Positions 2,994 through 36,103 of a stretch of DNA of 40,539 nucleotides are shown piece after piece. Origin of the DNA: Candidatus Woesearchaeota archaeon (GTDB lineage: Archaea > Nanobdellota > Nanobdellia > SCGC-AAA011-G17 > UBA489). The stretch covers positions 1 through 40,539 of the forward strand of contig CAYJXL010000003.1 in NCBI GenBank assembly GCA_964374125.1. Reading direction: 5' to 3'. Positions within the stretch are counted from its first letter, which is position 1. Each line of letters starts with the position of its first letter. The notes beneath the pieces are model-generated. The model searched no databases. It saw nothing but the letters and a program-made list of their open reading frames with translations, and had not been told where the DNA came from. The position numbers and the translations under genes were made by a program.

Positions 2994-3196
2994 TAGCGGG
3001 GGATGGAAAGTCATAGAGTCCAATCCGAACTTCTATTTTGAACCATCGACCCTCCCGACGTATGTTTTCGGGTGTCCAAGACAGCTTATGAGCCCATTCC
3101 GCTAGTTGTTCACTAGTGACGGACATTCAGGCACTTTCGTGTCTCCTGGCTGTCCTAATGCAGTTTGAAAAGGTGTTCCTTTATCAAATCCCCGCT
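2994..3196 (-). tRNA. Initiator tRNA-Met (CAU), apparently interrupted by six introns
   Basis: Minus-strand exons: 3196-3190 AGCGGGG; 3157-3142 TAGGACAGCCAGGAGA; 3124-3118 GTCCGTC; 3095-3087 GGGCTCATA; 3073-3068 ACCCGA; 3052-3037 GGGTCGATGGTTCAAA; 3007-2994 TCCATCCCCCGCTA. Joined they give a 75-nt cloverleaf with A1:U72, initiator-type GGG/CCC anticodon stem, CUCAUAA loop, UUCAAAU T-loop and A73. A TATA box lies upstream at 3229-3237. Confidence 0.6.
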
Positions 3197-3228
3197 ATAA
3201 GCCAGGATAAAGTAAAGCGCTACGCTCC

Positions 3229-3237
3229 TTTTATAAA
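3229..3237 (-). promoter_or_regulatory. TATA box (TTTATAAAA on minus strand) for the initiator tRNA gene
   Basis: Centre is 37 nt upstream of tRNA position 1, which predicts a leader of about 10 nt. An A-rich BRE-like AGAAACG lies immediately upstream. Confidence 0.5.
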
Positions 3238-3242
3238 CGTTT

Positions 3243-3251
3243 CTAGCAAAG
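3243..3251. repeat. Target-site duplication, left copy (CTAGCAAAG)
   Basis: Identical 9-mer at 5780-5788. The outer bases overlap the IR termini, so the true duplication is 7-9 bp. Confidence 0.75.
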
Positions 3252-3291
3252 TGCATTGTTGCATAAGCGGGAGTTATCTTAATTAAAAAAA

Positions 3292-3435
3292 TTATTTCTT
3301 CTTTGGTTTATTCCATCTAGCAGTTTTACATTTTGGGCAAATAAGAGGTCTCTCATCTCCCCTCTTCATCCATGTATGTCCACATTTTTCACACCTATAG
3401 ACTTCTTCATTTCCAAATACTTTCTGAATTGCCAT
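3292..3435 (-). CDS. 47-aa zinc-ribbon protein (IS passenger)
   Basis: MAIQKVFGNEEVYRCEKCGHTWMKRGDERPLICPKCKTARWNKPKKK, with a CxxC...CxxC arrangement. Below the ORF-track cutoff. A TATA-like box at 3455-3463 is centred about 24 nt upstream. Confidence 0.55.
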   Translation of the reverse strand: MAIQKVFGNEEVYRCEKCGHTWMKRGDERPLICPKCKTARWNKPKKK

Positions 3436-3473
3436 ACAAAATAGAAACAAATGTGATATATAAAGTTCACTAT

Positions 3474-3487
3474 TTAGGTTAACCTAA
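3474..3487. promoter_or_regulatory. Perfect 14-bp palindrome TTAGGTTAACCTAA, candidate operator
   Basis: Lies between the divergent zinc-ribbon and transposase genes. Shares TTAGG/CCTAA half-sites with the palindrome upstream of the IS-borne TrmB gene. Confidence 0.45.
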
Positions 3488-3546
3488 TAACCGAAATGTT
3501 TATATAGTAGTATTACCTAATAAGTATACCTATTAAGTAAATATAA

Positions 3547-3564
3547 GGGACTCCGGAGAGTCCC
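3547..3564 (+). promoter_or_regulatory. Hairpin GGGACTC-CGGA-GAGTCCC in the transposase 5' leader
   Basis: 7-bp GC-rich stem with a tetraloop, 23 nt upstream of the transposase ATG and downstream of the TATA-like GTTTATATAG (3498-3507). Its location is typical for translational control of transposases. Confidence 0.4.
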
Positions 3565-3586
3565 AATTTCACCCGTCGTCAAACAA

Positions 3587-4510
3587 ATGAAATCGATAAA
3601 TATAATCCAAGAGAAGTATAAAAAAGTTTCTTGTCCTGGTTGTAATTCTAATAAGTTAAAGAAAGATGGAAAAAGAAAAACTAAGAACAGAGGAAAGATT
3701 CAAAGATATAAATGTAAGGATTGTAATTTGAGATTTGTCCTTGATGATGGTTTTTACAGAATGAGGAACCACGAAAAGAAAATAACTCTTTGTATGGATT
3801 TATATTATAATGGAATGTCTTTTAGAAAAATCCAAGAACATCTGAAAGTATTCTATCCTAAAAATTGTCATTATTCTACTGCATATCGTTGGATAATCAA
3901 ATATTCAATGATGATTAGCAACTTAACGGACAAACTACAAAGTAAATCAGGAATTGAATTACAATCTGATGAGATGGAATATCAGAGAAGGGTAAGTAAA
4001 TATCAAAAAGGTAGGGAGCAGAATTGGTTCGTTGATGTGATGGACACAACAACTAGATTTATGGTTTCTTCTGGTTACATGAGAAGCAGAACAATAGACA
4101 ACATGGTTAAGGTTTTGAAAAGAGGAAAATTCGTAACAGGAAATCAGGTTAAGGTTATTACAACTGACGGACTTAAAGGTTATCCAAGAATGCTAAAGAA
4201 AAGTTTCGGGTTAAGGTCACATTGGAATCACAAAAGCCCGATTGTTCATAATGTTGTCATTGCATCTGAAAGAGGTTTTAATCACCCAATAGAAAGATTA
4301 CATAACTCAATTAGAGAACGAACAAAAGTCATGAGGGGATTTCATGGTTGCATGGAATCAGCGTCTGCAATAATGAAAGGATATGAAATCTATTATAATT
4401 TTATAAGAAAGCATCAAGGAATAAATTGTCGACCTTATGAGTTGGCTATTCCTGATTTAGAATTGAGTAAGAATAGATGGTTGGATTTGATTAAGATGTC
4501 TAAAGTTTAA
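3587..4510 (+). CDS. DDE transposase with N-terminal zinc finger (IS6/IS1-like)
   Basis: CPGC...CKDC zinc finger. DDE-type blocks SDEMEY, ITTDGLKGY, NHPIERLHNSIRERTKVMRGF and YNFIRKHQG. The family cannot be resolved by eye. Confidence 0.85.
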   Translation: MKSINIIQEKYKKVSCPGCNSNKLKKDGKRKTKNRGKIQRYKCKDCNLRFVLDDGFYRMRNHEKKITLCMDLYYNGMSFRKIQEHLKVFYPKNCHYSTAYRWIIKYSMMISNLTDKLQSKSGIELQSDEMEYQRRVSKYQKGREQNWFVDVMDTTTRFMVSSGYMRSRTIDNMVKVLKRGKFVTGNQVKVITTDGLKGYPRMLKKSFGLRSHWNHKSPIVHNVVIASERGFNHPIERLHNSIRERTKVMRGFHGCMESASAIMKGYEIYYNFIRKHQGINCRPYELAIPDLELSKNRWLDLIKMSKV

Positions 4511-4511
4511 T

Positions 4512-5270
4512 TTATCTTTTTGCTGAACTCCATAATAGATTAAAATATTCAATAAAACTGTTTGCAACATCTTGAGATTTAATATGTATAGAATTTATTT
4601 TGTTACCAAATATTATAATTACTGTTCTATCCTTATAAATATTAATAGCAACTGGAGAAGTATGTTGAATATATTTCGTTTTTGTAGCAGGATATTTCTT
4701 TGAAGAATAAAGTCTCTTAGTGGATTCTTTTTGTCTTAGGTTGAATAACATTTTTGTTTTAATTCCTTTTTTCTCCCTCCAAATATGAACTTTTTCAAAA
4801 AATGCCTGAACAATTTCTTCGTCCACTCCTTTTGTACCTCCAATAACAAAACAGGTCTCACCTTTCTTTAATAATTCAACTTGTTCTTTGAAGATTATCT
4901 CTAATCCCTTTTGGCCACTGATTAATTCAATTTCTTGCTCTCCTTTAGATGCTGAGTATAGTGTTAACAAATTTGGCAAAATAGATCTTGCTTCCTTTTC
5001 AATTTTAGATATTTGTTGTTTTTTATCTTCCAAATATCCTAAAATCTGCTTAGGATTTGTTGGCTTAAAGTGTTTTACTTTATTTTTAATATAAATTGAG
5101 GCTAATCCCTTATTTTGAAGTTTCTCTAGAATTTCATAAATTTTTGATCCTGCAATACCTGATCTGTTTACTAATTCTCCCCTTGTTGAATCCCCAAGCT
5201 CCAAAAGTGACAAGTAAACTCTTGTTTCAGAGTCAGTTAACCCTATTTCTCTTAATATTTCTGTTCTCAT
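4512..5270 (-). CDS. TrmB-family transcriptional regulator (IS passenger)
   Basis: N-terminal wHTH LTDSETRVYLSLLELGDSTRGELVNRSGIAGSKIYEILEKLQNKGL plus a TrmB-like C-terminal domain. Lies inside the IR/TSD boundaries and shares the low GC of the element. Confidence 0.8.
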   Translation of the reverse strand: MRTEILREIGLTDSETRVYLSLLELGDSTRGELVNRSGIAGSKIYEILEKLQNKGLASIYIKNKVKHFKPTNPKQILGYLEDKKQQISKIEKEARSILPNLLTLYSASKGEQEIELISGQKGLEIIFKEQVELLKKGETCFVIGGTKGVDEEIVQAFFEKVHIWREKKGIKTKMLFNLRQKESTKRLYSSKKYPATKTKYIQHTSPVAINIYKDRTVIIIFGNKINSIHIKSQDVANSFIEYFNLLWSSAKR

Positions 5271-5280
5271 ATAGTCCCCC

Positions 5281-5295
5281 TTAGGGTAACCCTAA
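5281..5295. promoter_or_regulatory. Palindrome TTAGGGT-A-ACCCTAA, candidate TrmB autoregulatory operator
   Basis: 11-25 nt upstream of the TrmB start and abutting the TATA-like TATTTAAATAT. Same half-sites as 3474-3487. Confidence 0.45.
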
Positions 5296-5365
5296 TATTT
5301 AAATATACCTATTTTACTATACTATCATAAAGTAGTTACAATAAATGTAAGGAGGTAACACAAAG

Positions 5366-5719
5366 ATGAAAAAAACACTAAAAAATCTTGTATTAGGAGT
5401 TACATTAGCTGGTGCTCTTATTACTACAGGTTGTGAAAAGGAAGAGAGCGAAAGAGATAGCAGATTGCCAGAAGTTAGAGACAATCAAAGTCTAATCTTA
5501 CACCCTGACTACCTTAATGGAATGTCTACTTTAGGCTATACTCTTTTGACAGATATAGACCATAATGGAGATTGGGATCTTGCAGAAAGATATCATGCAG
5601 GATTTACAACAGGTGATGGATCACACAAGCTCTACTTTAAGAAAGGTTTTGGGCCTGCACAATCTGTAAATACAGAGGTTGAGTTTGTAGAACCTGAATT
5701 TTTTAAACCATACCAGTAA
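5366..5719 (+). CDS. Putative lipoprotein (IS passenger)
   Basis: Signal peptide with lipobox MKKTLKNLVLGVTLAGALITTGC. AGGAGG Shine-Dalgarno at 5351-5356. Confidence 0.65.
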   Translation: MKKTLKNLVLGVTLAGALITTGCEKEESERDSRLPEVRDNQSLILHPDYLNGMSTLGYTLLTDIDHNGDWDLAERYHAGFTTGDGSHKLYFKKGFGPAQSVNTEVEFVEPEFFKPYQ

Positions 5720-5779
5720 TTCTAAATCTGGCATGGTTTTTATTTTTCTTGTAGTAGCTCCCTTTAATGCAACAATGCA

Positions 5780-5788
5780 CTAGCAAAG
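5780..5788. repeat. Target-site duplication, right copy (CTAGCAAAG)
   Basis: Identical to 3243-3251. Confidence 0.75.
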
Positions 5789-5798
5789 GTTTTATTAA
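5789..5798 (+). promoter_or_regulatory. TATA box GTTTTATTAA for the HAD gene
   Basis: Centre is 27 nt upstream of the ATG at 5821, implying a leaderless mRNA. Matches the recurrent AAAGGTTT(T)ATA motif of this window. Confidence 0.5.
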
Positions 5799-5820
5799 GA
5801 AGCTAAACTAACATAGAAAC

Positions 5821-6531
5821 ATGACCAAAAACAACTGCATCGTCGTCGTGGACTTCTCAGGCACCTTGATCAAGCCGTTCGTCGCAGAAGAAGCAAACAA
5901 GCGAAGATACGTAAGATTGGGTCTTGAACTGCCATCAGAAGCTGATCGTAAACGTGCGCATGGCACAAAAGAACACTATGATCCTCTGCGTGCCTACATC
6001 GGCGAGAAATTCGGCATTCAGTCCCATATGAAGATATTCCTGCAACAGGACCATGGAGAAACAAGAGAACTCACCGGCATAGAATACGAAACAAAAATCA
6101 TGACTGACCTGTTTCGTGATGAAATCTTACAGATTGCAAATGAACAAGGAGGCCGTATCTATAGCGATGGTATATTGGATGCACTCAGAGTAATTCAACG
6201 GAGAGGATACAAATTAGCGATTGTTTCTGGCATGCGAACAGATATTATCACAGGTATATTTGCTATTACAGAATGCTCAGTGAATTTTGATTTCGTATAT
6301 GGACAAGACTCGATCTTAAGTCGAGATGACAGTCATCTCTTAACGAAAGAACTTGCTGAGAAAGGAACGATTGAGTATATCATCGGAGACAAGTTGGCAG
6401 ATCTCGAACCTGCAACAGCGCTCGGCGCCAAGTCGATCTTCTTCAAGGGCGGCCACCCGACAGGAGGAGAAGAAGAATTCGCTGACTTCACTATAACATA
6501 TGCAAAAGAATTAGAAGAGCTCATCAAGTAA
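5821..6531 (+). CDS. HAD-superfamily hydrolase
   Basis: Motif I VVVDFSGTL (nucleophile Asp present; the Asp+2 position is Ser), motif II IVSGM, motif IV GDKLADLE. Confidence 0.75.
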   Translation: MTKNNCIVVVDFSGTLIKPFVAEEANKRRYVRLGLELPSEADRKRAHGTKEHYDPLRAYIGEKFGIQSHMKIFLQQDHGETRELTGIEYETKIMTDLFRDEILQIANEQGGRIYSDGILDALRVIQRRGYKLAIVSGMRTDIITGIFAITECSVNFDFVYGQDSILSRDDSHLLTKELAEKGTIEYIIGDKLADLEPATALGAKSIFFKGGHPTGGEEEFADFTITYAKELEELIK

Positions 6532-6673
6532 AAGACAAAACAGCTTTCTGTATAGCCTCAACCGTCTGTAGCTTCTGTAGTTTAACCCGTAATAGTGAGC
6601 TTCCTTCAAGTCCTTTCGTAAAACCCATCGCCCGTTCCCTCACCGTCTTAACATCAGGTCTATGTGCCAGCAT
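6524..6673 (-). CDS. 49-aa hypothetical protein (intact copy of a duplicated small ORF)
   Basis: MLAHRPDVKTVRERAMGFTKGLEGSSLLRVKLQKLQTVEAIQKAVLSFT. Below the ORF-track cutoff. A paralogous but frameshifted copy lies at 7785-7936. Confidence 0.4.
   Translation of the reverse strand: MLAHRPDVKTVRERAMGFTKGLEGSSLLRVKLQKLQTVEAIQKAVLSFT
6543..6672. repeat. Diverged direct repeat, left copy, flanking the HEPN/MNT cassette
   Basis: Aligns by eye with 7801-7929 at roughly 70% identity, with a single 1-nt length difference. Confidence 0.6.
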
Positions 6674-6726
6674 CAAATACACAAACCTTTCGGGAACAGA
6701 AAGGCTTTTATACTACTGGTTTATAA

Positions 6727-7296
6727 ATGATACATATGGTTCAAAATAAGACCAATCTGGAATTAGAAATAATCCTTGCCTTATTAAAGAATAAAGCCCA
6801 TTTGAGAGGCATGGCAAGGACGCTCAATGAGTCGCATTCAACAGTCTTAAGAAAAATCAACGAGCTTCTCAAAAAGAACGTGCTGGACTACAAGAAAGAG
6901 GGCAGAAACAAGGTATTCTTTATTAAAAACAACTTAACGGCAAAAAATTACGTCTACTCTGCTGAGATTTATAAACTCTCAAAGATAATAGAAAAATACC
7001 GGGAGCTGAGCATAATCTTTGAGGACATCAAAAGACAATTTCAAAAAGGCATGATTATCTTGTTTGGCAGCTATGCAAAAGGGAATCCAAGGCAGGAAAG
7101 CGATATTGACATTTATCTCGAAACAACAGGCAGCGAGATCAAGAGCCGATTGCAGGAACTAAACTCAAAGCTGAGCATAAAGACTGGCAGGTTTGACGTG
7201 AGGTCGCTATTAATCAAAGAAATAATGAAGAATCATGTTATCATAAGAGGAGTAGAGGAATTCTATGAACGAAATGAATTTTTTAAGGAAGCTTAA
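6727..7296 (+). CDS. wHTH plus minimal nucleotidyltransferase (MNT antitoxin-like)
   Basis: NTase motif ILFGSYAKGNPRQESDIDIYLE preceded by a wHTH (RGMARTLNESHSTVLRKINELL). The start may be the ATG at 6736, which sits 27 nt from TATA CTTTTATAC (6705-6713). Confidence 0.8.
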   Translation: MIHMVQNKTNLELEIILALLKNKAHLRGMARTLNESHSTVLRKINELLKKNVLDYKKEGRNKVFFIKNNLTAKNYVYSAEIYKLSKIIEKYRELSIIFEDIKRQFQKGMIILFGSYAKGNPRQESDIDIYLETTGSEIKSRLQELNSKLSIKTGRFDVRSLLIKEIMKNHVIIRGVEEFYERNEFFKEA

Positions 7297-7759
7297 AAAT
7301 GAAGGCAAAATAGAGCTCGTCGAGCCGTCAGAGGAAATGAGATTGTCGTATCTCAAGAAATCTGAAGACTGCCTTATATCTGCAAAGATACTTCTTCAAA
7401 ATCAACTATACGAAAATTCCACATCAGAAGCTTATTATGGCATGTATAACGCCCTGCTCGCTCTTTTGTTCACAGTTGGAATAAAATCAGAGAATCATTC
7501 AGCATCGCTTCTCATCTTTAAGAACCTGTTTCACGAAGAAAGGCTGTACAAACTGGCCTCTCATGCTAAAGAAGAAAGAATAGACAAGCAGTATTATGTG
7601 GAAGCGCAGCAGGCGTCAAAAGCCAGCAAGGAGTCCTGCAGCGACATAGTCCTGAAAACAGAGGAATTCTTTGTTAAAATGAAGCTGCTGATCAGTCAGA
7701 TGAATAACGAAAAAACGAATGCTGCAAGGATCTCATTTCAGGAATTGTTTACGCAGTGA
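7265..7759 (+). CDS. HEPN-domain protein (toxin-like partner of MNT)
   Basis: Overlaps the MNT gene by 32 nt. All-helical HEPN-like sequence (LISAKILLQNQLYENSTSEAYYGMYNALLALLF...). The MNT-HEPN gene order is typical. Confidence 0.7.
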   Translation: MNEMNFLRKLKNEGKIELVEPSEEMRLSYLKKSEDCLISAKILLQNQLYENSTSEAYYGMYNALLALLFTVGIKSENHSASLLIFKNLFHEERLYKLASHAKEERIDKQYYVEAQQASKASKESCSDIVLKTEEFFVKMKLLISQMNNEKTNAARISFQELFTQ

Positions 7760-7784
7760 TTACCAACATCGCGCTTCGTGGTCA

Positions 7785-7936: not shown

Positions 7937-7949
7937 GCCTAAAAAAGTT

Positions 7950-8630
7950 TCACGTCGGTTTCTTCCGTAAGCTTACCGCACGCTCCTTTGACCAGATAAT
8001 CGCGTTCTCTGTAATCTTAATCTTTTGTGGACAGTTCTGTGAACAACAGCGCGTTACGTTGCAGTTCCACAAGCCTTCTTTTTCCAAGAGTGAAGCACGC
8101 TCAGCCTTTTCGTAGGGATGCTTGTCAAATGACGTAGCTTTCACAATGTTCATTGGCCCAGTGAACTTGAGATTCTGATGATTTCGAATAACGTGGCAGC
8201 TGTCGTAACAAATAAAGCAGTCAATGCATCGTCGCATCTCCTGCGCCTCTTTAATCTCTTTATCCTGAATGGAGAACAATCCTTTTTTGTTGTTGCCAGT
8301 GAAATAAGGCTTCAAGCGCGTCAGCTTTTCGTAAACCTCCTTCGGATCAGTGACAAGATCCTTGATGATGGGAAATACTTTTAATGGCAAAATAGAAATC
8401 GCCTTCATTGCTTCAGTAATCTCGGCTTTGCACATCAAGACCGGCTTCCCATTCACTTCGGCTGCACAGCTTCCACAAATTCCTTCGCCGCAATTCCACC
8501 GGAATGCAAGATCTGGTTCGCTGTTTTCCTGGATATAAAAGAGAGCATCAAGCACCATCATTTTCTTCGAGAATGGAACCGCATATTCTTTTGTCCCATC
8601 ACTTCTTTTGATGAATATCTTAATTTTCAT
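7950..8630 (-). CDS. sdhB: Succinate dehydrogenase/fumarate reductase iron-sulfur subunit
   Basis: 2Fe-2S motif CGEGICGSCA...C. 4Fe-4S/3Fe-4S motifs CIDCFICYDSC and CNVTRCCSQNCP. ATGA overlap with sdhA. Confidence 0.9.
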   Translation of the reverse strand: MKIKIFIKRSDGTKEYAVPFSKKMMVLDALFYIQENSEPDLAFRWNCGEGICGSCAAEVNGKPVLMCKAEITEAMKAISILPLKVFPIIKDLVTDPKEVYEKLTRLKPYFTGNNKKGLFSIQDKEIKEAQEMRRCIDCFICYDSCHVIRNHQNLKFTGPMNIVKATSFDKHPYEKAERASLLEKEGLWNCNVTRCCSQNCPQKIKITENAIIWSKERAVSLRKKPT

Positions 8631-10330
8631 AAAAACCTCCGCAACTGTTCAGGGATTTCCGGTACTGAACGAGTGAATAACATCATGCTTCTGCCTTGTG
8701 TTTTCATTAGGATGTTCTTGAGCCAGCCCTTGTCGTTCTTATTAGGGTAATCCGCACGGAAATGCGCGCCCCTGCTCTCCTTTCGGAGCAATGCTGACCG
8801 AACAATCGCCTCGCATGTTGGAATCATCACTAAAACGTCAATATACTGCATCCAGTCGTGGTTGTATGGTTGGGAGCCGGTGACCTTGACGTTTTTCAGC
8901 ATGCGTTTGATTCTCTGCAATTCCCGTGCCGCACGCTGCAGCGACCTCTTGTCTCTCACGATGCCGACGTTATGCCACATTACATCCTGTAGCTTTTTCT
9001 TGAGAGCAATTGGCCGTACGCCCTTGCGCTTTGAAAACGGTGCAATTAAACGTTTCCACTCTTCTTTTATGACGTTCGCTTGGATTTTCTTTTGCTTCTT
9101 TATTGCGTGCCTTGCCGCATAGTACCCTGCTCTCTTACCGAACACCAAGATATCAGCGAGCGAATTCCCCCCCAAACGATTTGCGCCATGAACGCCTGCT
9201 GTTACCTCACCTGCCGCAAACAACCCTTTTACATCACTCTTACACGTTTCCGGATCAACAACAATGCCACCCATCGCATAGTGCGCTGTAGGAGCAACTT
9301 CCATTTTTTCTTTTGTGATATCAATGTTTGCGAAGTCATTGAACTTGTCAATCATCTTCGGCAATTTCTTCTCGATAAATGCTCGTGGTTTTTGCGAGAT
9401 ATCGAGCCACACACCGTTATGCTTCGTGCCTCGACCGGCTTCAATTTCATGGAAGATTGCTCGCGCAACAACGTCCCGGGTGCTTAGTTCCATGCGCTTT
9501 GGATCATATTTCTTCATAAAACGCTCTCCCTTTGCGTTTACAAGTATTCCACCCTCACCGCGGACAGATTCGGTAACGAGGACGCCTTCGACTGTTTCTG
9601 GATAGACCATGCCTGTTGGATGAAACTGAATCATTTCCATGTCCTGCACGAGCGCACCAGCACCTAATGCGAGCGCATACCCATCGCCGACAGTTTCCCA
9701 CGCATTCGTGCTCCTCCTGTAAACTCTTGCGAGTCCGCCTGCAGCTAAGATGACTGCCTTGCAGCCAATGACCATAAGTTCACCGGTGCGCAATGATATT
9801 CCAAGAGCACCAATGATTGTGCTATTTCTCTTGACTAATTTCGTGATAGTGCATTCCTCGAGGTTGGCGATGAGCTTGCTTCTTTTTCTGACCTCCGCCA
9901 TAAGAACTTGCATAATCTCCAGTCCAGTTCGGTCTGCAATATGACATGCTCTTCGGTAACGGTGGCCTCCAAAAGGACGCTGCATGATCTTGCCGTCTTC
10001 TGTCCGATCGAAGATCGCGCCATAGCCCTCGAGATCATTGATGATCTTTGGAGCCTCCTTTGCAAGAATCTCGACCATCTTCCAATTGTTGATGTACTGG
10101 CCCTCGATGATGGTGTCAGCAAAGTGCACCTTCCAGTTGTCCTGCGGGTCAAGGTTTCCCAAGGCTGCGTTGATGCCTCCTTCTGCCATAACAGTGTGGG
10201 CCTTTCCCAACAGCGTCTTGCCAACGATGAGCACCTTTTTTTTCTGGTCTGCTGCTGCAATCGCTGCTCGTAATCCAGCGCCACCGGTACCAATGATCAG
10301 GACGTCTGTGGCGTACTTTATTGTTTTCAT
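8627..10330 (-). CDS. sdhA: Succinate dehydrogenase/fumarate reductase flavoprotein subunit
   Basis: FAD fold DVLIIGTGGAGLRAAI, KAHTVMAEGG (FAD-linking His region), HPTG, RGEGG, and a C-terminal ESRGAHFR motif. Confidence 0.9.
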   Translation of the reverse strand: MKTIKYATDVLIIGTGGAGLRAAIAAADQKKKVLIVGKTLLGKAHTVMAEGGINAALGNLDPQDNWKVHFADTIIEGQYINNWKMVEILAKEAPKIINDLEGYGAIFDRTEDGKIMQRPFGGHRYRRACHIADRTGLEIMQVLMAEVRKRSKLIANLEECTITKLVKRNSTIIGALGISLRTGELMVIGCKAVILAAGGLARVYRRSTNAWETVGDGYALALGAGALVQDMEMIQFHPTGMVYPETVEGVLVTESVRGEGGILVNAKGERFMKKYDPKRMELSTRDVVARAIFHEIEAGRGTKHNGVWLDISQKPRAFIEKKLPKMIDKFNDFANIDITKEKMEVAPTAHYAMGGIVVDPETCKSDVKGLFAAGEVTAGVHGANRLGGNSLADILVFGKRAGYYAARHAIKKQKKIQANVIKEEWKRLIAPFSKRKGVRPIALKKKLQDVMWHNVGIVRDKRSLQRAARELQRIKRMLKNVKVTGSQPYNHDWMQYIDVLVMIPTCEAIVRSALLRKESRGAHFRADYPNKNDKGWLKNILMKTQGRSMMLFTRSVPEIPEQLRRFL

Positions 10331-13919: not shown

Positions 13920-13992
13920 TGGGCCTGCTCGGATTCGAACCGAGGACCTCAACCGTGTGAAGGTTGCGTCATAGCCGCTAGACTACAGGCCC
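13920..13992 (-). tRNA. tRNA-Val (CAC), no intron
   Basis: GGGCCUG/CAGGCCC acceptor, anticodon stem CAACC/GGUUG with loop UUCACAC, T arm CUCGG-UUCGAAU-CCGAG, discriminator A. No encoded CCA. Confidence 0.9.
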
Positions 13993-15045
13993 GCAGGTGA
14001 TTATATTATCCTTGACCGTGAACTTCACTGGCAGAAACTGTTCGATGAGCCATATATTAGTTTTTGCATGCGTACTTAGATGAGGAATCGCAATCTTGCA
14101 TTCTTTTCCGCTTAAAGCCATGTACACGAGAAGCTGGTCTGCCATGTATTCATCGACGGCGCAATTCATGCGCATTTGCGCTAACAATCCTTTGGCTGCT
14201 TCCTGCCCAACAGCTTCGCTTGCTTTATTTCTTTCGCCTAGCGCGTCCCATGCTATGATGCAGTTTTCGTAGACTGCCTTCAATAGTATTCCACAGCCTG
14301 GATTTAGTGTTTGTTGATATTCCTCAACAATGGAAATTGGCTGATTGATACTGATCGTTTTCTCGGCACTTTCACGGATTCTTTCGCAAACGCGCTTTTT
14401 TCGCAGATCAGAACTCGCAACAACAACGCCCTCGATGCCCAACAATGCTCCGCGTTCAAGCAAGGTTGCACTGCTTGTTTCTTTCACTTTTTTCACGAGA
14501 ACATTGACGTCGGCGCCACCCTTTGGATAAAAACCGTGCCTCTTCGTTGCAATGTGCATCTGAAAGCCAAGCTTCTTCATCATGGGCACAAGTACCTCTT
14601 GAATGTACAGGATATTTGGCGCATGCGTTCCAAATGTTCCGCCGCCAGTAACATGAATGCTGACATCAGATGCCCCATAGAAAGATGGCAATGCCAAGCA
14701 CTGCAGCAGAAGCCCAACGCTGCCAGCGGTTTCGACGTGGACATTTAATTCATTCTTATATTCTGACCTCGGGTGAAAGATAATTTCCGATGAGCCGAGT
14801 TTTGCTCCTTCCAATGAACCATTGCAAAATTCTTTCACGGCCTCAATTGCGCGGAGATGCTGCGTTCGCAAGCCGCTTTCTTTTCTTTGGCTTCGAATGC
14901 TATAGACTCGGACTGGCTTTTGCGCGATACATGAAAGGGCGACGCTCAAGCGGACAATAGAACCGCCCCCCTCCAAGTGATTACCGGGAATTGCCAGCAT
15001 GGACGTTCCTTCGCTTATGGAGCTTAAAATGCTTCCTATAGCCAT
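13978..15045 (-). CDS. rtcA: RNA 3'-terminal phosphate cyclase
   Basis: LEGGGSIVRLSVALSCIAQKPVRVYSIRSQRKESGLRTQHL and overall colinearity with RtcA. An alternative start is the Met at 15000. The last five codons overlap tRNA-Val. Confidence 0.85.
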   Translation of the reverse strand: MAIGSILSSISEGTSMLAIPGNHLEGGGSIVRLSVALSCIAQKPVRVYSIRSQRKESGLRTQHLRAIEAVKEFCNGSLEGAKLGSSEIIFHPRSEYKNELNVHVETAGSVGLLLQCLALPSFYGASDVSIHVTGGGTFGTHAPNILYIQEVLVPMMKKLGFQMHIATKRHGFYPKGGADVNVLVKKVKETSSATLLERGALLGIEGVVVASSDLRKKRVCERIRESAEKTISINQPISIVEEYQQTLNPGCGILLKAVYENCIIAWDALGERNKASEAVGQEAAKGLLAQMRMNCAVDEYMADQLLVYMALSGKECKIAIPHLSTHAKTNIWLIEQFLPVKFTVKDNIITCGPVV

Positions 15046-17817: not shown

Positions 17818-17956
17818 GCCGAGGTCGCATAACCTGGTATTGCGCAGGATTGCTAAAGGTTATGTAAACATCCTGTGTCCGCAAGGACGTGTGGGTTCAA
17901 AAGCACTTTCAGAGCCGGTCCAAGACCAGCGGTGACTGATCGTCCCACCCTCGGCG
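17818..17956 (+). tRNA. tRNA-Ser (GCU) with two introns (37/38, 14 nt; T-loop about 59/60, 41 nt)
   Basis: Exons 17818-17855, 17870-17901 and 17943-17956. Acceptor GCCGAGG/CCUCGGC plus G73; D arm GCAU-AACCUGGUA-UUGC; anticodon stem CAGGA/UCCUG with loop UUGCUAA; long variable arm GUCC-GCAA-GGAC; T arm GUGGG-UUCAAA[intron]U-CCCAC. An oligo-T tract follows (17957-17965). Confidence 0.8.
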
Positions 17957-20034: not shown

Positions 20035-20734
20035 CTGAGCTTTTGTACTTGAGGGACAGCTATGCAAGAGAATTTGACGCAATGGTCACTGCGGTCAATG
20101 GCAAAGAGGTCATATTAGACAGGACGTATTTTTATCCAAGCGGTGGCGGGCAGCCTTTTGACACAGGCACGATTTCAACTGGCGGCGCTTTCTATTCTGT
20201 CGTGAATGTTCATAAGGGCGAGCATGGCGTTGTTCATGAACTTGATCATGACGACCCCAAGGTCGGCGATGTTGTCCATGGGGCTATTGATTGGGAGCGG
20301 CGGTACAAACTGATGCGGTTTCATACTGCAATTCACGTCCTTGTTGGCGTTATTTGCAATGAAACTGGCGCGCTGATTACCGGGAACCAGATTGACGTTG
20401 ACAAGAGCCGGATCGACTTCAATCTTGAGATTTTTGATAGGGAAAAGATGCAGGAACACTTTGAGAAGGCGAATGCGATTATCCAGCAGGATTTGCCGGT
20501 AACGGTGACGTTTACGACGAGAGAGGAGGCGTTGCAGATCCCTCGTTGTTCAAGTTGCTGAAGGGGTTTCCTGAGCACATCAAGGATATCAGAATCGTTT
20601 CTCTTGGCGAATTTGACCGGCAGGCAGATGGCGGAACGCACGTGCGATCAACGAGAGAAATCGGGAAGGTTGAGCTTTTAAGCTGCGAGAACAAGGGAAA
20701 GAATAATCGGAGGGTTTATTTTCAATTACTCTAA
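20031..20734 (+). pseudogene. alaX: AlaX-type alanyl-tRNA editing protein, frameshifted
   Basis: Frame 0 carries the HTAIHVL (HxxxH) core and stops at 20561. Frame 2 continues PSLFKLLKGFPEHIKDIRIVSLGEFDRQADGGTHVRSTREIGKVELL... to 20734. The junction is near 20536-20545. ATGA overlap with the upstream gene at 20031. Confidence 0.75.
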
Positions 20735-21406
20735 TCTTTTTTCCAAACCTTCGCCGACAAACTGGTTTCTGCCCCGTTGCTTTGCAATGCGTACTCTTGT
20801 GTCTGCTTTTTCCCTGAGATCAGAAATTTGCGCAAGAGGGTAAAAAGAACCACCAACGCTGATAGTGACGTTTTTATAATCACTCCCTTGCTTATAATGA
20901 ACGCCTGTGAACCTTTTGGCAAGATTCTGAGGTAAGGCGATTTGTTGATTGCGGACAACGTTAACTAGACGTTCGCCGTATCTCTCGAATAAACTAAAAT
21001 CCAGATCTCTTTTGACAACAATAAACTCTTCACCACCCCATCGCCCCATGAAATCACCAGTGCGAGGATCGAGACTGAGCGAAAGCGCAGAGGCGGTATG
21101 TGCCAATGCTATGTCTCCTGCGTCGTGACCATATGCATCATTATAACGCTTGAATTCATCAAAGTCAACGACATAGAAGCTGACTGTGCTGCCAGGTCGT
21201 TGTTTTCTGTTGAGATGTTCCTCGAGATAGCGAACAAGAAAGCGCGGGTTGAAAATTTCAAGATCGGGCACAAATTGACGTATCTTTTGATCATACATCA
21301 CTTCGGCTCGTACAATGTCCGCATTGGCAGGATCTAGAAGCGAAAGTTGCCTCAGTGCTGACAAAGGGTCAGTCTTTCTTCGTTGCGGTATATTCATTAC
21401 TTTCAT
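20726..21406 (-). CDS. GGDEF-domain diguanylate cyclase (stand-alone)
   Basis: DFDEFKRYNDAYGHDAGDIAL, I-site RTGD five residues before the A-site GGEEF, then SVGGS...ADTRVRIAKQRGRNQF. TATA TTATAAATAA (minus strand, 21431-21440). Confidence 0.85.
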   Translation of the reverse strand: MKVMNIPQRRKTDPLSALRQLSLLDPANADIVRAEVMYDQKIRQFVPDLEIFNPRFLVRYLEEHLNRKQRPGSTVSFYVVDFDEFKRYNDAYGHDAGDIALAHTASALSLSLDPRTGDFMGRWGGEEFIVVKRDLDFSLFERYGERLVNVVRNQQIALPQNLAKRFTGVHYKQGSDYKNVTISVGGSFYPLAQISDLREKADTRVRIAKQRGRNQFVGEGLEKRLE

Positions 21407-29044: not shown

Positions 29045-29107
29045 ATTTAGATGCTTGTTGTATAATTTAAATAGTTTGCTGTTGCCTTTCGGAGAATTCA
29101 GTAACTA

Positions 29108-30081: not shown

Positions 30082-30119
30082 ATCGAAAGCTTTTTTATCC
30101 TCTTGTTGCTCTTCCTTGC

Positions 30120-32421: not shown

Positions 32422-33311
32422 CCAGTCGAATTCGTTGCGCGTATAATGATCTTTGCTGTTGCAGTTTTTTCTGACTTGCCGTCTTTTTCAACAGCATTGC
32501 ATTCATTATCAATACAGAAGAAACATTTTGCCTTGTAACTTGCTGTTAATCTTCCCCTTCCCAGATATGATCCTTCTTCAGGGTCTGCAGGGATTGTTTC
32601 TCGCTTCTCTTCGTTGCTGTTTGGATCAAGCTCCAGCGTCGCGACACGGCCATAGTCCCTAGCATCAGGGGTATTATCGAAGTCAGTATCTATCTTGATG
32701 TCCTTGTCGACTTCACACTGAATCTGCTCGCTTTCGTCATTTTTGATTTCGATGATGAGATCTTCGTAGCGGGCAGATTGACTGCTTGAGATGATTTCTA
32801 CGATCTGGTCGTCGATCTTGCCGTCACGGTCAAAATCACCGAGGGTGCGGTCCTTCAACTTTAGCTGAAATTCAGGTCCCGGGAGCTGTTCTGGTGTTTC
32901 TTTATGCGGGGTTTGAGTCTTCGGCAGTTCATTTGTTTGTTGCGACTGTTCTGTTGTCGTCTGTGTATTTTGTTCAGACCCCTGTTGCGCGGTTGTTTGT
33001 GATTGCTGGAGGATTGCGCTTCCGGTGATCAGTGTTGGATCTGCCTTAATGATTTCCTTTATCTTTTCTGCATTGTACTGCGGAAAGAAATAGGCTGTCG
33101 CGAAGAGGCTCATCACAATGATGAGCATGAGCATGTCCCAGATCATCCACGGCTTGAGTGTAGGTTCGCTTTGCGGCTCTTGCGGCGCTATCGGCTCGCG
33201 AACTGGCCGTTTTGGTTCTTCTCTCACCTCCTTGAGGCGTTCTTTTGCCTCTAAAACGTCTTTTTTCCGCTCCAATTCTCTTTTTTGCTTGAGGTAGTCC
33301 TCTATGTCCAT
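32418..33311 (-). CDS. Membrane-anchored extracytoplasmic protein with Q/T-rich linker and Asp-rich (possible Ca-binding) domain
   Basis: Charged N-terminus, TM MLMLIIVMSLFATAYFF, a QQSQTTAQQGSEQNTQTTTEQSQQT linker, and DRDGKIDD / DTDFDNTPDARD acidic loops. Confidence 0.55.
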   Translation of the reverse strand: MDIEDYLKQKRELERKKDVLEAKERLKEVREEPKRPVREPIAPQEPQSEPTLKPWMIWDMLMLIIVMSLFATAYFFPQYNAEKIKEIIKADPTLITGSAILQQSQTTAQQGSEQNTQTTTEQSQQTNELPKTQTPHKETPEQLPGPEFQLKLKDRTLGDFDRDGKIDDQIVEIISSSQSARYEDLIIEIKNDESEQIQCEVDKDIKIDTDFDNTPDARDYGRVATLELDPNSNEEKRETIPADPEEGSYLGRGRLTASYKAKCFFCIDNECNAVEKDGKSEKTATAKIIIRATNSTG

Positions 33312-33394
33312 GTCATCACCACTGTTTCTTCATGTGTTATTTCTTTTAAATCCTTTTCTATTCTTGGCTATATACGACTCAAACGTTATAACAC

Positions 33395-34696
33395 CTAGGG
33401 TCTGAAGCGAAGCATGGTTCTGGGGAATGGAATTGCGTCTTTAATGTTATCTAAGCCACAGATCCAACTCACGATGCGTTCAACGCCGAGACCGAATCCG
33501 GAGTGGGGAACGCTGCCGTAACGGCGCGTGTCGAGATACCATTGATAGCTCTCGATTTTTTCGCCTTCTTTTTTTAATGCTTTTTTAAGCTCTTCAATGT
33601 TTGTATCACGCTGGCTGCCGCCGATGATCTCGCCATATCCTTCCGGCGCAAGGACGTCCATGCATAATGCGGTTTTCGGGTCTTTTGGATCCCTTGGTTT
33701 GTAGAATGCCATGATTTCTTTTGGGTAGTTTGTGACGATGACTGGCTTGTCGAAATGGTTCATGATGAGATCTTCCTCTGTTGTCCTGAGATCTTTTCCC
33801 CACGGAATTTCGATGTTTTCCTTTTCTTTCAGGAGCTTGAGCGCTTCTGTGTACGTGATGCGCGGGAATGGCGGCTTGACCTTTTCAAGGTTCTTCACGT
33901 CACGCTCAAGGATCTTCAGCTCTTCATGGTTTGTCTCAAGGACTTTCTTGACGATGTGGGAGATGAGGTCTTCCGCTTGTTTTTGAAGTCCTGGAAATTC
34001 CATCCATGCAGTTTCCACTTCTGCCATCCAGAACTCGCTTAAGTGGCGCGTGGTCTTGCTTTTTTCCGAGCGAAAGCATGGAGAGATGCAGTAAATCTTT
34101 TCCAATGCGAAGATTGCGGCTTCTGCGTACAGCTGCCAGCTTTGGGTAAGATAGACCTTGTCCTTGTAGTACTTGACTTCGAACAATGTTGATCCACCTT
34201 CGCAGGCGTTTGGCGTGAAGATAGGCGGCTCCATTTCGTGGTAGCCTTTGCTGCGAAAGAACTCATGGATTGCGCCGAAGACGGTGCTTCGGATTTTCAT
34301 TATTGCTGTCAACTTGCGAGAACGGATTGCTAAATGACGGACATCGAGCAAGAATTCGGTGCTCTGGTCTTTTGTAATGGGGAATTTTTCTGCGAGCTGT
34401 ACGACCTCGAATTTCTCGACGTGAAGCTCGTAGCCTGTTGGCGCTCTTTCGTCCCTTTTTATTTCTCCCTGAACCTTAAGTGAACTTTCAACAGAGATCT
34501 TATCAATTTGCTTCCATTCTGCTTCAGTAAACTTTGTTTTTTCAAAGACGCACTGGATGATGTTGCTCGCGTCTCTAAGAACAACGAACTTTAATGCGTT
34601 GGAGCCCCGTTCTCGATAGACCCAGCCTCGCAAGACTACCTTGCCGTTGCCTTTTTTCAAAGCTTCTTGAATGGAGATAAAATCCATAATATACAT
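33395..34696 (-). CDS. asnS: Asparagine--tRNA ligase (archaeal type)
   Basis: FRSEKSKTTRHLSEFWMAEVE (motif 2), APEGYGEIIGGSQRD, and GSVPHSGFGLGVERIVSWI...FPRT (motif 3). The start may be the Met at 34687. Confidence 0.9.
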   Translation of the reverse strand: MYIMDFISIQEALKKGNGKVVLRGWVYRERGSNALKFVVLRDASNIIQCVFEKTKFTEAEWKQIDKISVESSLKVQGEIKRDERAPTGYELHVEKFEVVQLAEKFPITKDQSTEFLLDVRHLAIRSRKLTAIMKIRSTVFGAIHEFFRSKGYHEMEPPIFTPNACEGGSTLFEVKYYKDKVYLTQSWQLYAEAAIFALEKIYCISPCFRSEKSKTTRHLSEFWMAEVETAWMEFPGLQKQAEDLISHIVKKVLETNHEELKILERDVKNLEKVKPPFPRITYTEALKLLKEKENIEIPWGKDLRTTEEDLIMNHFDKPVIVTNYPKEIMAFYKPRDPKDPKTALCMDVLAPEGYGEIIGGSQRDTNIEELKKALKKEGEKIESYQWYLDTRRYGSVPHSGFGLGVERIVSWICGLDNIKDAIPFPRTMLRFRP

Positions 34697-34764
34697 ACAC
34701 TTCTTGACGTTTTTAAAGATTGTGTGAGCATGAGTAACCTAAAAAGGAAAAGATTTTAAGCAAT

Positions 34765-35295
34765 ATGCGCATGCGTGACGTTATGGTCTTTCAGTATCAC
34801 TATGCTCATGGAGAAGCAAGCTTTGACAAGCCATTGAAGTTCCAAGTAAAGGGTGGAGCGCATTTGACGTTTGAGATTGTTCCTGTTTATCAAGGGAAGA
34901 TGGTTGCACTGTTGCGCGATTCGATTCCCGGTCACGAGAAGCCTCCTGGCGCTGAGCAATACCCTGGGGGCATGTGGTATTTTTGTCATGATCTGGTTCG
35001 ATATGCTGAACCGATGGATAACTTTGTGCAGCGCATCGTTACGGCGCAAGCTGGTGTCAATGTCACTTCTTGGAAGATTACTGATTTTGAATCAACGTTC
35101 CAAGAGAAGGATGAACAATGGGCTTTGGTTGGTTACATACTGGCTGAAGTTGATGCTTTACCTAAGCCCGGTGTTTATGGGAATGAGGTGAAGAAAGTTG
35201 TTGTGTTTACAGAAAAAGATGTTCCAGAACCATTTGCGTGGTGGCCAACAGACGACGTAAGGGCGTATGCGAAGAAGCATCTGACTGAAAAGTAA
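34765..35295 (+). CDS. Hypothetical protein
   Basis: Long ORF with no recognised motif. The start is possibly the Met at 34783, about 27 nt from a TATA-like AAAGATTTTAAG. Confidence 0.5.
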   Translation: MRMRDVMVFQYHYAHGEASFDKPLKFQVKGGAHLTFEIVPVYQGKMVALLRDSIPGHEKPPGAEQYPGGMWYFCHDLVRYAEPMDNFVQRIVTAQAGVNVTSWKITDFESTFQEKDEQWALVGYILAEVDALPKPGVYGNEVKKVVVFTEKDVPEPFAWWPTDDVRAYAKKHLTEK

Positions 35296-35362
35296 ATTTA
35301 GAGCCAAACATTTTTAATTTTCGTAGTTTTCTTCTTGCTTCTTTCTTCGTGTTTTGAGTTCT

Positions 35363-35995
35363 CTACTCATCGTTGAGGAGAGGATACAATTTTTCTCTGG
35401 TAAGATCACGATAGTGTTGATCTCTTTCCTTGTCTTTAGGCGACAAGTCTTTCCAAGAACTAACGCCTTGCAGGCCTTTCTGCTGTGTGAAGAAGACTCG
35501 GTAGCCGAGATTCGGATGTTTTGTGTCTGTAATGCTGTAGGTATGGCATGCGTATGTTCTTCCGTCTTCTTCAATGGTGACATAACCGCCTTCTTTTTTG
35601 AAGATTTTTCGTAGGTCTGAGTGATTCACTTCTTCGATCTTTATGTTTCCCGGCTCAACCATTTCCTTGATGATACTTTTTATATAGTACCCTGGTCCTT
35701 GTAGGGGAATAAAATGGATATGCGCGTGTGACACGGTCTGACCCCATATGCCATACTCGATTTGGAATGGTGAACCAAAGGTTTGGTGCAATGCGTTGAG
35801 CATTTTCCTTTTTATTTGCAGGAATTCTTCTTGCAGCTTTTTTGGAAGCACCCCAAAACATGGAAGATGATCTCGTGTAATCAGCATGATGTGGCCGGGT
35901 GCAATAAGTCCGATCCCAATTCTTACTAAGAAGTTTTTTGATTCATATATTCGGTATTCGTCTCTTTCTTTGCCGCAGAAAATACAGTTTTTCAT
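35363..35995 (-). CDS. HIT-family nucleotide hydrolase/transferase with C-terminal extension
   Basis: N-terminal CIFC, APGHIMLITRDH and the histidine triad HAHIHFIP. An extra C-terminal domain of about 90 aa. Confidence 0.8.
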   Translation of the reverse strand: MKNCIFCGKERDEYRIYESKNFLVRIGIGLIAPGHIMLITRDHLPCFGVLPKKLQEEFLQIKRKMLNALHQTFGSPFQIEYGIWGQTVSHAHIHFIPLQGPGYYIKSIIKEMVEPGNIKIEEVNHSDLRKIFKKEGGYVTIEEDGRTYACHTYSITDTKHPNLGYRVFFTQQKGLQGVSSWKDLSPKDKERDQHYRDLTREKLYPLLNDE

Positions 35996-36001
35996 TGGAT
36001 G

Positions 36002-36103
36002 CGGGCCCAGTGGGATTTGAACCCACGACCCTCTGGTTTCTCACTCGGTGTTAAGAGCTTCATCCTTTTTGTCAGATGCTCCACCAAGCTGAGCTATGAG
36101 CCC
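36002..36103 (-). tRNA. tRNA-Lys (CUU) with two 14-nt introns flanking a 5-nt anticodon micro-exon
   Basis: Minus-strand exons 36103-36071, 36056-36052 (UCUUA) and 36037-36002. Acceptor GGGCUCA/UGGGCCC (one G:U), D arm GCUC-AGCUUGGUG-GAGC, anticodon stem UCUGA/CCAGA (A31:C39 mismatch), loop CUCUUAA, T arm GUGGG-UUCAAAU-CCCAC, G73. Confidence 0.75.

Follow-up and report, generated by a model that had tools for sequence, protein, structure and literature searches.

Three of the four tRNA genes found in a 40,539-nt stretch of archaeal DNA (contig CAYJXL010000003.1; hereafter the window, meaning the whole stretch analyzed, ~40 kb of one genome) are interrupted by a total of ten introns, and the pairing observed at every junction argues strongly that these loci are functional tRNA genes whose introns form bulge-helix-bulge (BHB) motifs and would be spliced by the endonuclease EndA. 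The most elaborate of the three encodes the initiator tRNA-Met(CAU) and is divided by six introns into seven exons; tRNA-Ser(GCU) and tRNA-Lys(CUU) carry two introns each, and tRNA-Val(CAC) is uninterrupted, giving a mean of 2.5 introns per gene across the window. An earlier reading of the window, made from its sequence only, had arrived at the same inventory, which is borne out here by parsing of the introns by hand, by script, and by the identification of the spliced forms with ARAGORN.

Interrupted tRNA genes and their detection

Standard gene finders recover little of this inventory, as the sequence-only reading had anticipated. Applied to the whole window, ARAGORN made tRNA-Val(CAC) its sole call and, when permitted to consider introns, mis-called the Lys gene as Val(aac). 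The Rfam model RF00005 recognized the Val gene and the Lys locus, the latter at 48.1 bits and with an unaligned 37-nt insert in the anticodon arm, and did not detect the initiator and Ser genes anywhere in the window at E<=10. Other weak Rfam matches (mir-573-like, group-II-like at 14159-14300, and snoRNA-like) were dismissed as lying at chance level. The two loci overlooked by both programs emerged as candidates (2995-3196 and 17818-17955) from a scan of intergenic DNA for GC-rich, 7-bp acceptor pairings, and intron maps (Table 1) were parsed by hand from the sequence and then confirmed by script.

Excision of the ten segments leaves mature products of 75, 84 and 74 nt, which ARAGORN identifies as Met(cat), Ser(gct) and Lys(ctt), respectively. 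All stems of the spliced products are intact, the sole exception being a U13·U22 pair in the D-stem of Ser, and the conserved bases are all present. The mature initiator, AGCGGGGTAGGACAGCCAGGAGTGTCCGTCGGGCTCATAACCCGAAGGTCGATGGTTCAAATCCATCCCCCGCTA, is assembled from exons of 7, 15, 8, 9, 7, 15 and 14 nt (AGCGGGG, TAGGACAGCCAGGAG, TGTCCGTC, GGGCTCATA, ACCCGAA, GGTCGATGGTTCAAA and TCCATCCCCCGCTA, in that order), with position 2994 as its discriminator base. Archaeal initiators are characterized by a CAU anticodon, an A1:U72 pair, three G:C pairs at 29-31:39-41, and R11:Y24; the spliced product displays each of these features (CAU, A1:U72, G29-G31:C39-C41 and R11:Y24). A plus-strand reading of this locus was entertained because the acceptor strands AGCGGGG/CCCCGCT look the same on both strands, but was rejected, as the CTCATAA loop occurs on the minus strand only. 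A TATA-like, A/T-rich box precedes the initiator gene, and comparable boxes are present upstream of the Lys (AACGTTTTTAAAGC) and Ser (CCCTTATATAACA) genes; these may act as promoters.

The ten introns sum to 211 nt, have a G+C content of 44% compared with 59% in the exons, and begin with A in every case (10/10). The two repeated classes previously proposed are evident in the intron maps: an intron of 13-14 nt at 37/38 is common to all three interrupted genes, and one at 59/60 is shared by two (initiator and Ser). For each of the three introns at 37/38, an alternative boundary at 38/39 would yield an identical mature product. We also constructed a BHB-aware scanner, which anchors on the T-arm and acceptor and proceeds by depth-first parsing with jumps gated by the BHB motif. 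In the 10.8 kb of the window lying outside open reading frames (ORFs), it returned the same four genes with the same introns (scores of 76, 66.5, 64.5 and 60.6; no decoy exceeded 52), and a relaxed run over the same 10.8 kb found no fifth tRNA gene. Repeats of a tRNA 3' end resembling att sites, a mark of integrated elements, were also searched for, and none was found.

Table 1. Coordinates and features of the tRNA genes in the window. Exons and introns are listed 5' to 3' along each gene; H, central helix; h, outer helix; h', inner hairpin; p, value from shuffling of the intron with exons fixed.
Feature	Position in tRNA	Coordinates	Strand	Description
Initiator tRNA-Met(CAU) gene		2994-3196	-	203 nt; seven exons, six introns; scanner score 76
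Initiator exons		3196-3190, 3157-3143, 3125-3118, 3095-3087, 3073-3067, 3051-3037, 3007-2994	-	
Initiator intron 1	7/8	3158-3189	-	32 nt, ATTTGATAAAGGAACACCTTTTCAAACTGCAT; HBh' type, H GCGG/CTGC, h' 5 bp; p=1e-4
Initiator intron 2	D-loop 20a/21	3126-3142	-	17 nt, ACACGAAAGTGCCTGAA; full hBHBh', H CAGG/CCTG, h' CAC/GTG, h 2 bp; p<1e-4
Initiator intron 3	28/29	3096-3117	-	22 nt, ACTAGTGAACAACTAGCGGAAT; HBh' type, H TCCG/CGGA, h' CTAG/CTAG; p<1e-4
Initiator intron 4	canonical 37/38	3074-3086	-	13 nt, AGCTGTCTTGGAC; relaxed BHB, H 3/4 paired, h = anticodon stem; p=0.054
Initiator intron 5	variable loop 44/45	3052-3066	-	15 nt, AACATACGTCGGGAG; HBh' type, H CCCG/CGGG; p=7e-4
Initiator intron 6	T-loop 59/60	3008-3036	-	29 nt, ATAGAAGTTCGGATTGGACTCTATGACTT; H 3/4 (TCA/TGA), h = T stem, h' 4 bp; p=0.03
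TATA-like A/T-rich box, initiator		3229-3237	-	TTTATAAAA; ~33-41 nt upstream of position 1
tRNA-Val(CAC) gene		13920-13992	-	uninterrupted; ARAGORN; Rfam 65.8 bits; scanner score 64.5
tRNA-Ser(GCU) gene		17818-17956	+	139 nt, mature 84 nt; class II, long variable arm, G73; scanner score 60.6
Ser exons		17818-17855, 17870-17901, 17943-17956	+	
Ser intron 1	37/38	17856-17869	+	14 nt, AAGGTTATGTAAAC; H TTGC/GTAA, 4/4; p=0.016
Ser intron 2	T-loop 59/60	17902-17942	+	41 nt; H 3/4 (TCA/TGA), h = T stem; p=0.063
tRNA-Lys(CUU) gene		36002-36103	-	102 nt, mature 74 nt
Lys exons		36103-36073, 36058-36052, 36037-36002	-	
Lys intron 1	anticodon stem 30/31	36059-36072	-	14 nt, ACAAAAAGGATGAA; H CATC/GATG, 4/4; p<1e-4
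Lys intron 2	37/38	36038-36051	-	14 nt, ACACCGAGTGAGAA; p=0.089 for 37/38 reading, H 3/4; boundary ambiguous by one base, 38/39 = 36037-36050, H 4/4

Fit of the introns to the BHB motif

The motif was defined by a 5' bulge comprising the final two exon bases and the first intron base, a 3' bulge comprising the final two intron bases and the first base of the next exon, and a central helix (H) in which exon bases -5 to -2 face the four intron bases numbered -5 to -2 relative to the 3' splice site. This geometry holds at all ten junctions, each being accompanied by a flanking outer helix (h), an inner hairpin (h'), or both. H is completely paired (4/4) in seven introns and paired at 3/4 positions in the remaining three (initiator 37/38, initiator 59/60 and Ser 59/60), and the introns with an imperfect H are those whose outer helix comes from the anticodon or T stem. 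Stems of the tRNA itself serve as the outer helix at 20a/21, 37/38 and 59/60; at 7/8, 28/29 and 44/45 there is none, and H is combined with an inner hairpin of 2-5 bp (the HBh' type). The D-loop intron is the only full hBHBh' structure, in that its two outer helices each reach 2 bp or more, and the remainder are relaxed forms. When intron sequences were shuffled with the exons held fixed, individual introns gave p values from <1e-4 to 0.09, and the combined value by Fisher's method was p=5e-17. The exons of each gene are all colinear and contiguous within 102-203 nt, which distinguishes these loci from split or permuted genes.

Several observations weigh against the interpretation of all ten segments as BHB introns of functional genes, and we gather them here. 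One mismatch in H affects three introns, and the shuffle values for the introns at 37/38 and 59/60 with H at 3/4 are marginal (0.03-0.09). Folding of the full initiator precursor with RNAfold recovers H at only two of six introns, 20a/21 (probability 0.98) and 44/45 (0.99); H at 7/8 reaches 0.85-0.88 only when the 5' prefix is folded alone, and RNAfold predicts no BHB at initiator 28/29, 37/38 and 59/60, nor in the Ser or Lys precursors. A conformer containing all of the BHBs lies 20-34 kcal/mol above the minimum free energy. Such low recovery is nonetheless expected, because the model penalizes 3-nt bulges that the enzyme stabilizes; understood as a property of the folding model, the result is uninformative on splicing order and would not constitute evidence against the introns. 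In addition, the 7-9-nt exons beside the HBh' introns (7/8, 28/29 and 44/45) have no outer helix to hold them for ligation. The agreement of our scanner with the intron maps is a consistency check and no independent discovery, its rules having been devised with the genes already seen. Finally, no EndA or RtcB was found in the 40-kb window or in any DPANN-type locus retrieved. The search for EndA employed tblastn, phmmer and a three-sequence hidden Markov model, with M. jannaschii EndA and segments of ARMAN-2 and M. kandleri EndA as queries, against the window and all 143 loci retrieved; the sole match, on L078, is not from a Woesearchaeota-type contig, and the enzyme is therefore assumed.

Alternative readings of the interrupted loci

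The 40 kb visible here leaves room for a second, uninterrupted copy of each gene elsewhere in the genome, and this too weighs against functional genes: the interrupted loci could be decaying relics, or pseudogenes, while an intron-poor set of tRNAs does the work. The imperfect BHBs (3/10) could be accommodated by this explanation, and some local decay is suggested by the insertion-sequence-like element upstream of the initiator gene and by a frameshifted GNAT-like neighbor. Drift, however, would not keep 233 exon positions in a state that yields intact stems (the U13·U22 pair aside) and a full set of conserved bases upon splicing. Nor would it account for the compensatory changes that maintain BHB helices between organisms, or for orthologues interrupted at the same positions in many other organisms (see below). 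The TATA-like box of the initiator is itself intact, the inserted element lying upstream of it, and archaeal genomes normally contain one initiator tRNA gene. We therefore consider decay of these loci an improbable explanation.

A narrower objection accepts the insertions as real and supposes that some insertions are not EndA-processed BHB introns, being removed by another route or kept, so that the true count would fall below ten in total and below six in the initiator. Those most open to this doubt are the 37/38 introns of the initiator and Lys genes and the 59/60 introns of the initiator and Ser genes, with H at 3/4 and shuffle values of 0.03-0.09, whose BHBs folding also fails to predict. 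Retention of these segments, however, would prevent the anticodon loop or T loop from forming, and Rfam gives no sign of either a group I or a group II intron at these loci. The relaxed pattern, in which TGA[N] faces TTCA of the T loop and a tRNA stem supplies the outer helix, is moreover found in at least 11 other initiators, often with H at 4/4, and short BHBs of relaxed form have been documented as a class at both 37/38 and 59/60 (PMC6379350, PMC3728597). An overcount of this sort strikes us as very unlikely.

The window is metagenome-derived, which raises the question of whether chimeric contigs or mis-joined repeats within tRNA genes created the interruptions during assembly or binning. 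Byte-identical copies of all three interrupted genes are present in Logan assemblies (ERR3478686, ERR4904391 and ERR4904392): the Lys gene in L001-L003, nearly all of the Ser gene in L141 and L142, and the complete six-intron initiator with its flanks in L143. Although these contigs may share read sets with the window, they were produced by a different assembler from three runs and are 100% identical over the three genes. Random mis-joins would not yield ten BHB motifs together with perfect cloverleafs, and the same architecture is found in related genes from unrelated metagenomes of the Joint Genome Institute (JGI). An artefact of assembly or binning is thus scarcely credible, and the loci are best viewed as genuine tRNA genes interrupted by BHB introns.

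Proposed maturation and the enzyme

In archaea, cleavage of a BHB by EndA takes place in each of the two bulges and leaves 2',3'-cyclic phosphate and 5'-OH ends that are ligated by RtcB. If maturation proceeds along these lines, each gene would be transcribed as a single precursor in which H is flanked by two 3-nt bulges holding the cut sites; EndA would cut both bulges, exon ends would be joined by RtcB, and a CCA-adding enzyme would then complete the tRNA, because CCA is not encoded. For the initiator, this would entail twelve cuts and six ligations. The order of these events may be constrained by the BHBs themselves. In the initiator, H at 44/45 (C39-G42) occupies the 3' strand of the anticodon stem, excluding the stem that the 37/38 BHB needs as its outer helix; H at 7/8 takes acceptor bases 2-5 and excludes the acceptor stem; and H at 28/29 (bases 23-26) excludes the D stem along with one pair of the outer helix of the D-loop intron. 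Such competition of BHBs with each other and with the cloverleaf suggests that the six introns would be removed stepwise, with refolding of the precursor.

Persistence of the introns would go along with an endonuclease tolerant of relaxed BHBs. Relaxed, non-canonical BHBs need an EndA with extra loops, either the (alpha-beta)2 form with L1 or the epsilon2 form with L2 (PMC5829648, PMC6379350), and an alpha4 EndA with L3, found in DPANN, has been proposed as a relaxed-BHB enzyme and tied to more disruption of tRNA genes (Kaneta et al. 2018, PMC5829648). By analogy with that proposal (PMC5829648), a permissive endonuclease, as the sequence-only reading had suggested, is plausible in this organism.

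Another RNA-related gene, rtcA (13978-15045, minus strand), runs in the same direction as tRNA-Val and shares 15 nt (13978-13992) with it, the stop codon and last five codons of rtcA falling within the 5' part of the tRNA. A single A/T-rich box, ATAATATAA, precedes tRNA-Val at a distance of ~10 nt, too near for a normal archaeal promoter, and co-transcription with rtcA therefore seems likely. We found nothing linking rtcA to splicing, and since EndA products already have 2',3'-cyclic phosphate ends, its adjacency to tRNA-Val is best treated as coincidental, a view that the sequence-only reading had left open.

Interrupted tRNA genes in related archaea

Genes in the window include those for ribosomal protein S8e, an ATP-dependent DNA ligase, TrmB-type regulators, AspRS, Dus and RtcA, a content that indicates an archaeal origin. 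Its AspRS is 71% identical to that of an unclassified 'archaeon' metagenome-assembled genome (MAG), 59-69% identical to those of eight 'Candidatus Woesearchaeota' MAGs, two 'Nanoarchaeota' MAGs and two Methanosarcinales-labelled records, which are probably mislabelled, and 46-53% identical to those of Thermoplasmata. By this one marker, we conclude that the organism is most likely a DPANN archaeon near Woesearchaeota. The neighborhood of tRNA-Lys is not conserved at the AspRS loci of GTDB genomes. ARAGORN detected no tRNAs in 156 kb of Woesearchaeota AspRS loci, but in the same 156 kb Rfam and our scanner identified three, all of them interrupted (3/3): a Thr(UGU) tRNA in L010 with a 12-nt intron at 37/38, a Leu-type tRNA in L008 with one intron, and an Arg(CCU) tRNA in L014 with two. 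The six tRNAs located in Thermoplasmata loci and in others outside Woesearchaeota are uninterrupted. The tRNA-Thr(UGU) gene (L010, 4400-4483, minus strand) has an unusual T-loop, TGCGAAT, with G55 in place of U, and was hence missed by the scanner.

A pattern scan of JGI metagenomes, which required initiator genes to have a 10-40-nt intron at 37/38, yielded at least 120 loci; upon spliced alignment to an initiator profile, these gave 93 distinct environmental genes among the matches listed. Within this set, a single intron is present in 56 genes, two in 21, three in 11 and four in five, with none exceeding four. All six intron positions of the window initiator recur among the matches listed, 7/8 in at least two genes, 20a/21 in at least about 8, 28/29 in at least five, 44/45 in at least about 11 and 59/60 in at least 11. 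The mature initiator sequence is identical to those of many environmental initiator genes at 66-72 of 74 positions.

Correspondence extends from the positions to the introns themselves. The D-loop intron of the window (ACACGAAAGTGCCTGAA) is homologous to that of L118 (ACATGAAATGCCTGAA), and the 28/29 intron (ACTAGTGAACAACTAGCGGAAT) to that of L134 (ACTAATTAAAAATTAGCGGAAT) and also to those of L118 and L045; introns resembling that at initiator 37/38 occur in L118 and L045, the 59/60 intron of L039 (ATAGAGATAG...CTCTATGAAGT) resembles initiator intron 6, and the 7/8 position is also occupied in L115 and L117. Pairing is maintained where sequences differ, H at 28/29 changing from TCCG:CGGA (window, L134 and L113) to TTCG:CGAA (L118 and L045), and H of the D-loop intron from CAGG:CCTG to CTGG:ACAG, compensatory changes that were judged by eye in a small sample without formal scoring. 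The h' hairpins likewise keep their pairing between organisms though their sequence varies. Some initiators depart from the typical size range, the 59/60 introns of L057 (144 nt) and L100 (73 nt) far exceeding the 13-45 nt usual in the set.

Orthologues of the other two genes show a similar pattern. Ser(GCU) genes contain introns at both 37/38 and 59/60 in L126, L040 and L112, at one of the two positions in L133 and L106, and at neither in L079; the 37/38 position is occupied in L126, L133 and L040, and the 45-nt intron at 59/60 in L126 carries the AGCACTTTCA run of the window intron, offset by one base from the 5' end. The Lys(CUU) genes of L070 and L105 have a 37-nt intron at 30/31. On contigs with the same type of initiator, the other tRNAs contain ~1.1 introns on average, concentrated in hot spots at 37/38 and 59/60; this figure is approximate and comes from a limited scan, as certain architectures escape the scanner and a few mis-parses are included. 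These mis-parses are Ser(CGA) and Ala(TGC) calls on L037 and L100, and probably on L140 and L118, which represent the initiator gene itself and were left in the pooled value. In ten loci (L021, L040, L055, L079, L106, L107, L112, L126, L133 and L134), the initiator and Ser(GCU) genes are no more than a few kb apart, compared with a distance of 14.6 kb in the window, and this proximity may represent a conserved tRNA neighborhood of the lineage.

The contention of the sequence-only reading that these interruptions are not isolated accidents has thus gained ground, through the shared positions in orthologous initiator, Ser(GCU) and Lys(CUU) genes of related uncultured archaea, the average of about one intron in tRNAs of related contigs, and the interruption of every tRNA identified at Woesearchaeota loci. 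These comparisons support intron richness as a property of the lineage, and make it plausible throughout the genome of this organism. The accompanying suggestion of recent intron proliferation, on the other hand, did not hold up. When the ten window introns were compared pairwise by local alignment against shuffled sequences, none of the 45 pairs reached p<=0.05 (a comparison of low power, the introns being short), and it is instead the orthologous introns that are homologous. This homology between organisms argues that the introns are old, vertically inherited, and differentially lost or gained. Overall, the pattern suggests an old, inherited set of introns at a limited number of positions, of which the window initiator appears to carry the full complement, with no sign of recent spread.

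Comparison with known systems

The split tRNA genes of Nanoarchaeum equitans and the tri-split genes of Caldivirga are encoded as separate pieces that are joined in trans via a BHB; in the window, by contrast, the seven exons of the initiator are colinear in one 203-nt gene, although N. equitans likewise belongs to DPANN. Transposition of introns between tRNA genes has been reported in Thermoproteales. As summarized in a secondary account of that order (Pyrobaculum, Thermofilum and others; Sugahara et al. 2008, via PMC8450103), BHB or relaxed introns occur there, as here, at canonical and many non-canonical positions, with several introns per gene, stepwise removal of neighbors, and genes that are hard to predict. 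The present case differs in having six introns in one gene, 2.5 introns per gene, a DPANN host, and no similarity between introns of different genes.

A further parallel is found among Asgard archaea. The report on Atabeyarchaeia and Freyarchaeia describes 228 introns in three genomes, or nearly 2 introns per gene at ~40 tRNA genes per genome, with 92-95% of tRNA genes interrupted, more than half having multiple introns, at non-canonical positions, and with an undercount by a standard tool like that seen here, tRNAscan-SE in that instance (PMC11291895). In the table of that report no tRNA has more than four introns, and the initiator has three (Valentin-Alvarado et al. 2024, PMC11291895), compared with six in the DPANN initiator examined here. 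Elsewhere, the tRNAscan-SE 2.0 paper puts the number in one gene at "up to three", and the density in Thermoproteales at 0.84 per gene (PMC8450103), and the Hirata 2019 review "two or three" per gene (PMC6379350). In the eukaryote C. merolae, BHB-type introns also occupy the D-loop, 37/38 and T-loop, with up to three per gene, and RT-PCR (reverse transcription PCR) showed their ordered removal; permuted genes occur there too, whereas nothing in the window is permuted or split (2013, PMC3728597).

Within the superphylum to which the present organism is assigned, disrupted tRNA genes and EndAs of broad specificity have been described, among the latter an epsilon2 EndA from ARMAN (Fujishima et al. 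2011, PMC3239211) and an alpha4 EndA with L3 (Kaneta et al. 2018, PMC5829648). The latter study also remarked on incomplete predicted tRNA sets in DPANN, and predicted that these genomes hide disrupted tRNA genes, in connection with EndA insertions relaxing BHB recognition (PMC5829648). It contained no genes with more than three introns, and included one Woesearchaeota genome, analyzed with tRNAscan-SE only (PMC5829648). A literature search, which was not exhaustive, for more than four introns per tRNA gene or for tRNA introns in DPANN or Woesearchaeota found nothing further.

Multi-intron BHB tRNA genes are therefore a known kind, here in an extreme form that calls for no new mechanism. Six introns in a 75-nt RNA exceed the published maximum that we found, four per gene. 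On balance we favor viewing the initiator as the most fragmented colinear tRNA gene found on record, one that is essential and probably single-copy, has mutually exclusive BHBs, and would mature by ordered cutting, refolding and ligation under an unusually relaxed endonuclease. If so, it would provide a natural substrate for studying how EndA chooses among overlapping, exclusive BHBs, in what order introns are removed, and how 7-nt exons are held for RtcB. The intron positions shared with many relatives, in varied combinations of one to six, represent a data set for measuring gain and loss of archaeal tRNA introns. On the same view, the number of introns in these genes would be determined by how introns are slowly acquired and lost at a few conserved positions. 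By extension, the tRNA sets of many DPANN genomes would be systematically under-called. With the initiator and Ser genes missed, an initiator and several elongators could be recorded as absent from genomes of this lineage, distorting estimates of completeness and possibly feeding mistaken claims of DPANN reliance on host tRNAs.

Neighboring genes and elements

The insertion-sequence (IS)-like element near the initiator gene spans 3250-5781, has a G+C content of about 0.34-0.37, and lies 53 nt upstream of the tRNA, just beyond the TATA-like box. Its termini are inverted repeats that match perfectly over 15 nt (AGTGCATTGTTGCAT / ATGCAACAATGCACT) and continue imperfectly as far as 42 nt, and a 5-bp direct repeat, AGCAA, is present on both flanks. 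Its genes encode a DDE transposase with a zinc ribbon (3587-4510) and a TrmB-like regulator (4512-5270, minus strand), accompanied by a 117-residue ORF and a 52-residue zinc-ribbon ORF. The junction between this element and the initiator gene is identical in L143. On the other side of the tRNA, an acetyltransferase-like (GNAT-like) gene at 2556-2992, assigned by reading of the sequence and having no Pfam match, appears to be broken by a frameshift into two ORFs (2556-2837 and 2834-2992), the second of which stops one base short of the 3' end of the initiator. Both ORFs are called separately in L143 as well, and the frameshift is therefore probably genuine.

Farther along the window, a nucleotidyltransferase gene (6727-7296; Polbeta/NTP_transf_2) overlaps one for a HEPN protein (7265-7759) in an arrangement resembling MNT-HEPN toxin-antitoxin pairs, and a 226-residue protein encoded at 20726-21406 (minus strand) contains a GGDEF diguanylate-cyclase domain (Pfam E=2.6e-26), which is uncommon in archaea. 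A flavoprotein (567 residues) and an iron-sulfur subunit (226 residues) of the succinate dehydrogenase/fumarate reductase type are encoded at 7950-10330 (minus strand); together with genes for an aldehyde dehydrogenase, an ornithine carbamoyltransferase and an amino-acid kinase, they denote a metabolism richer than that commonly described for small DPANN genomes.

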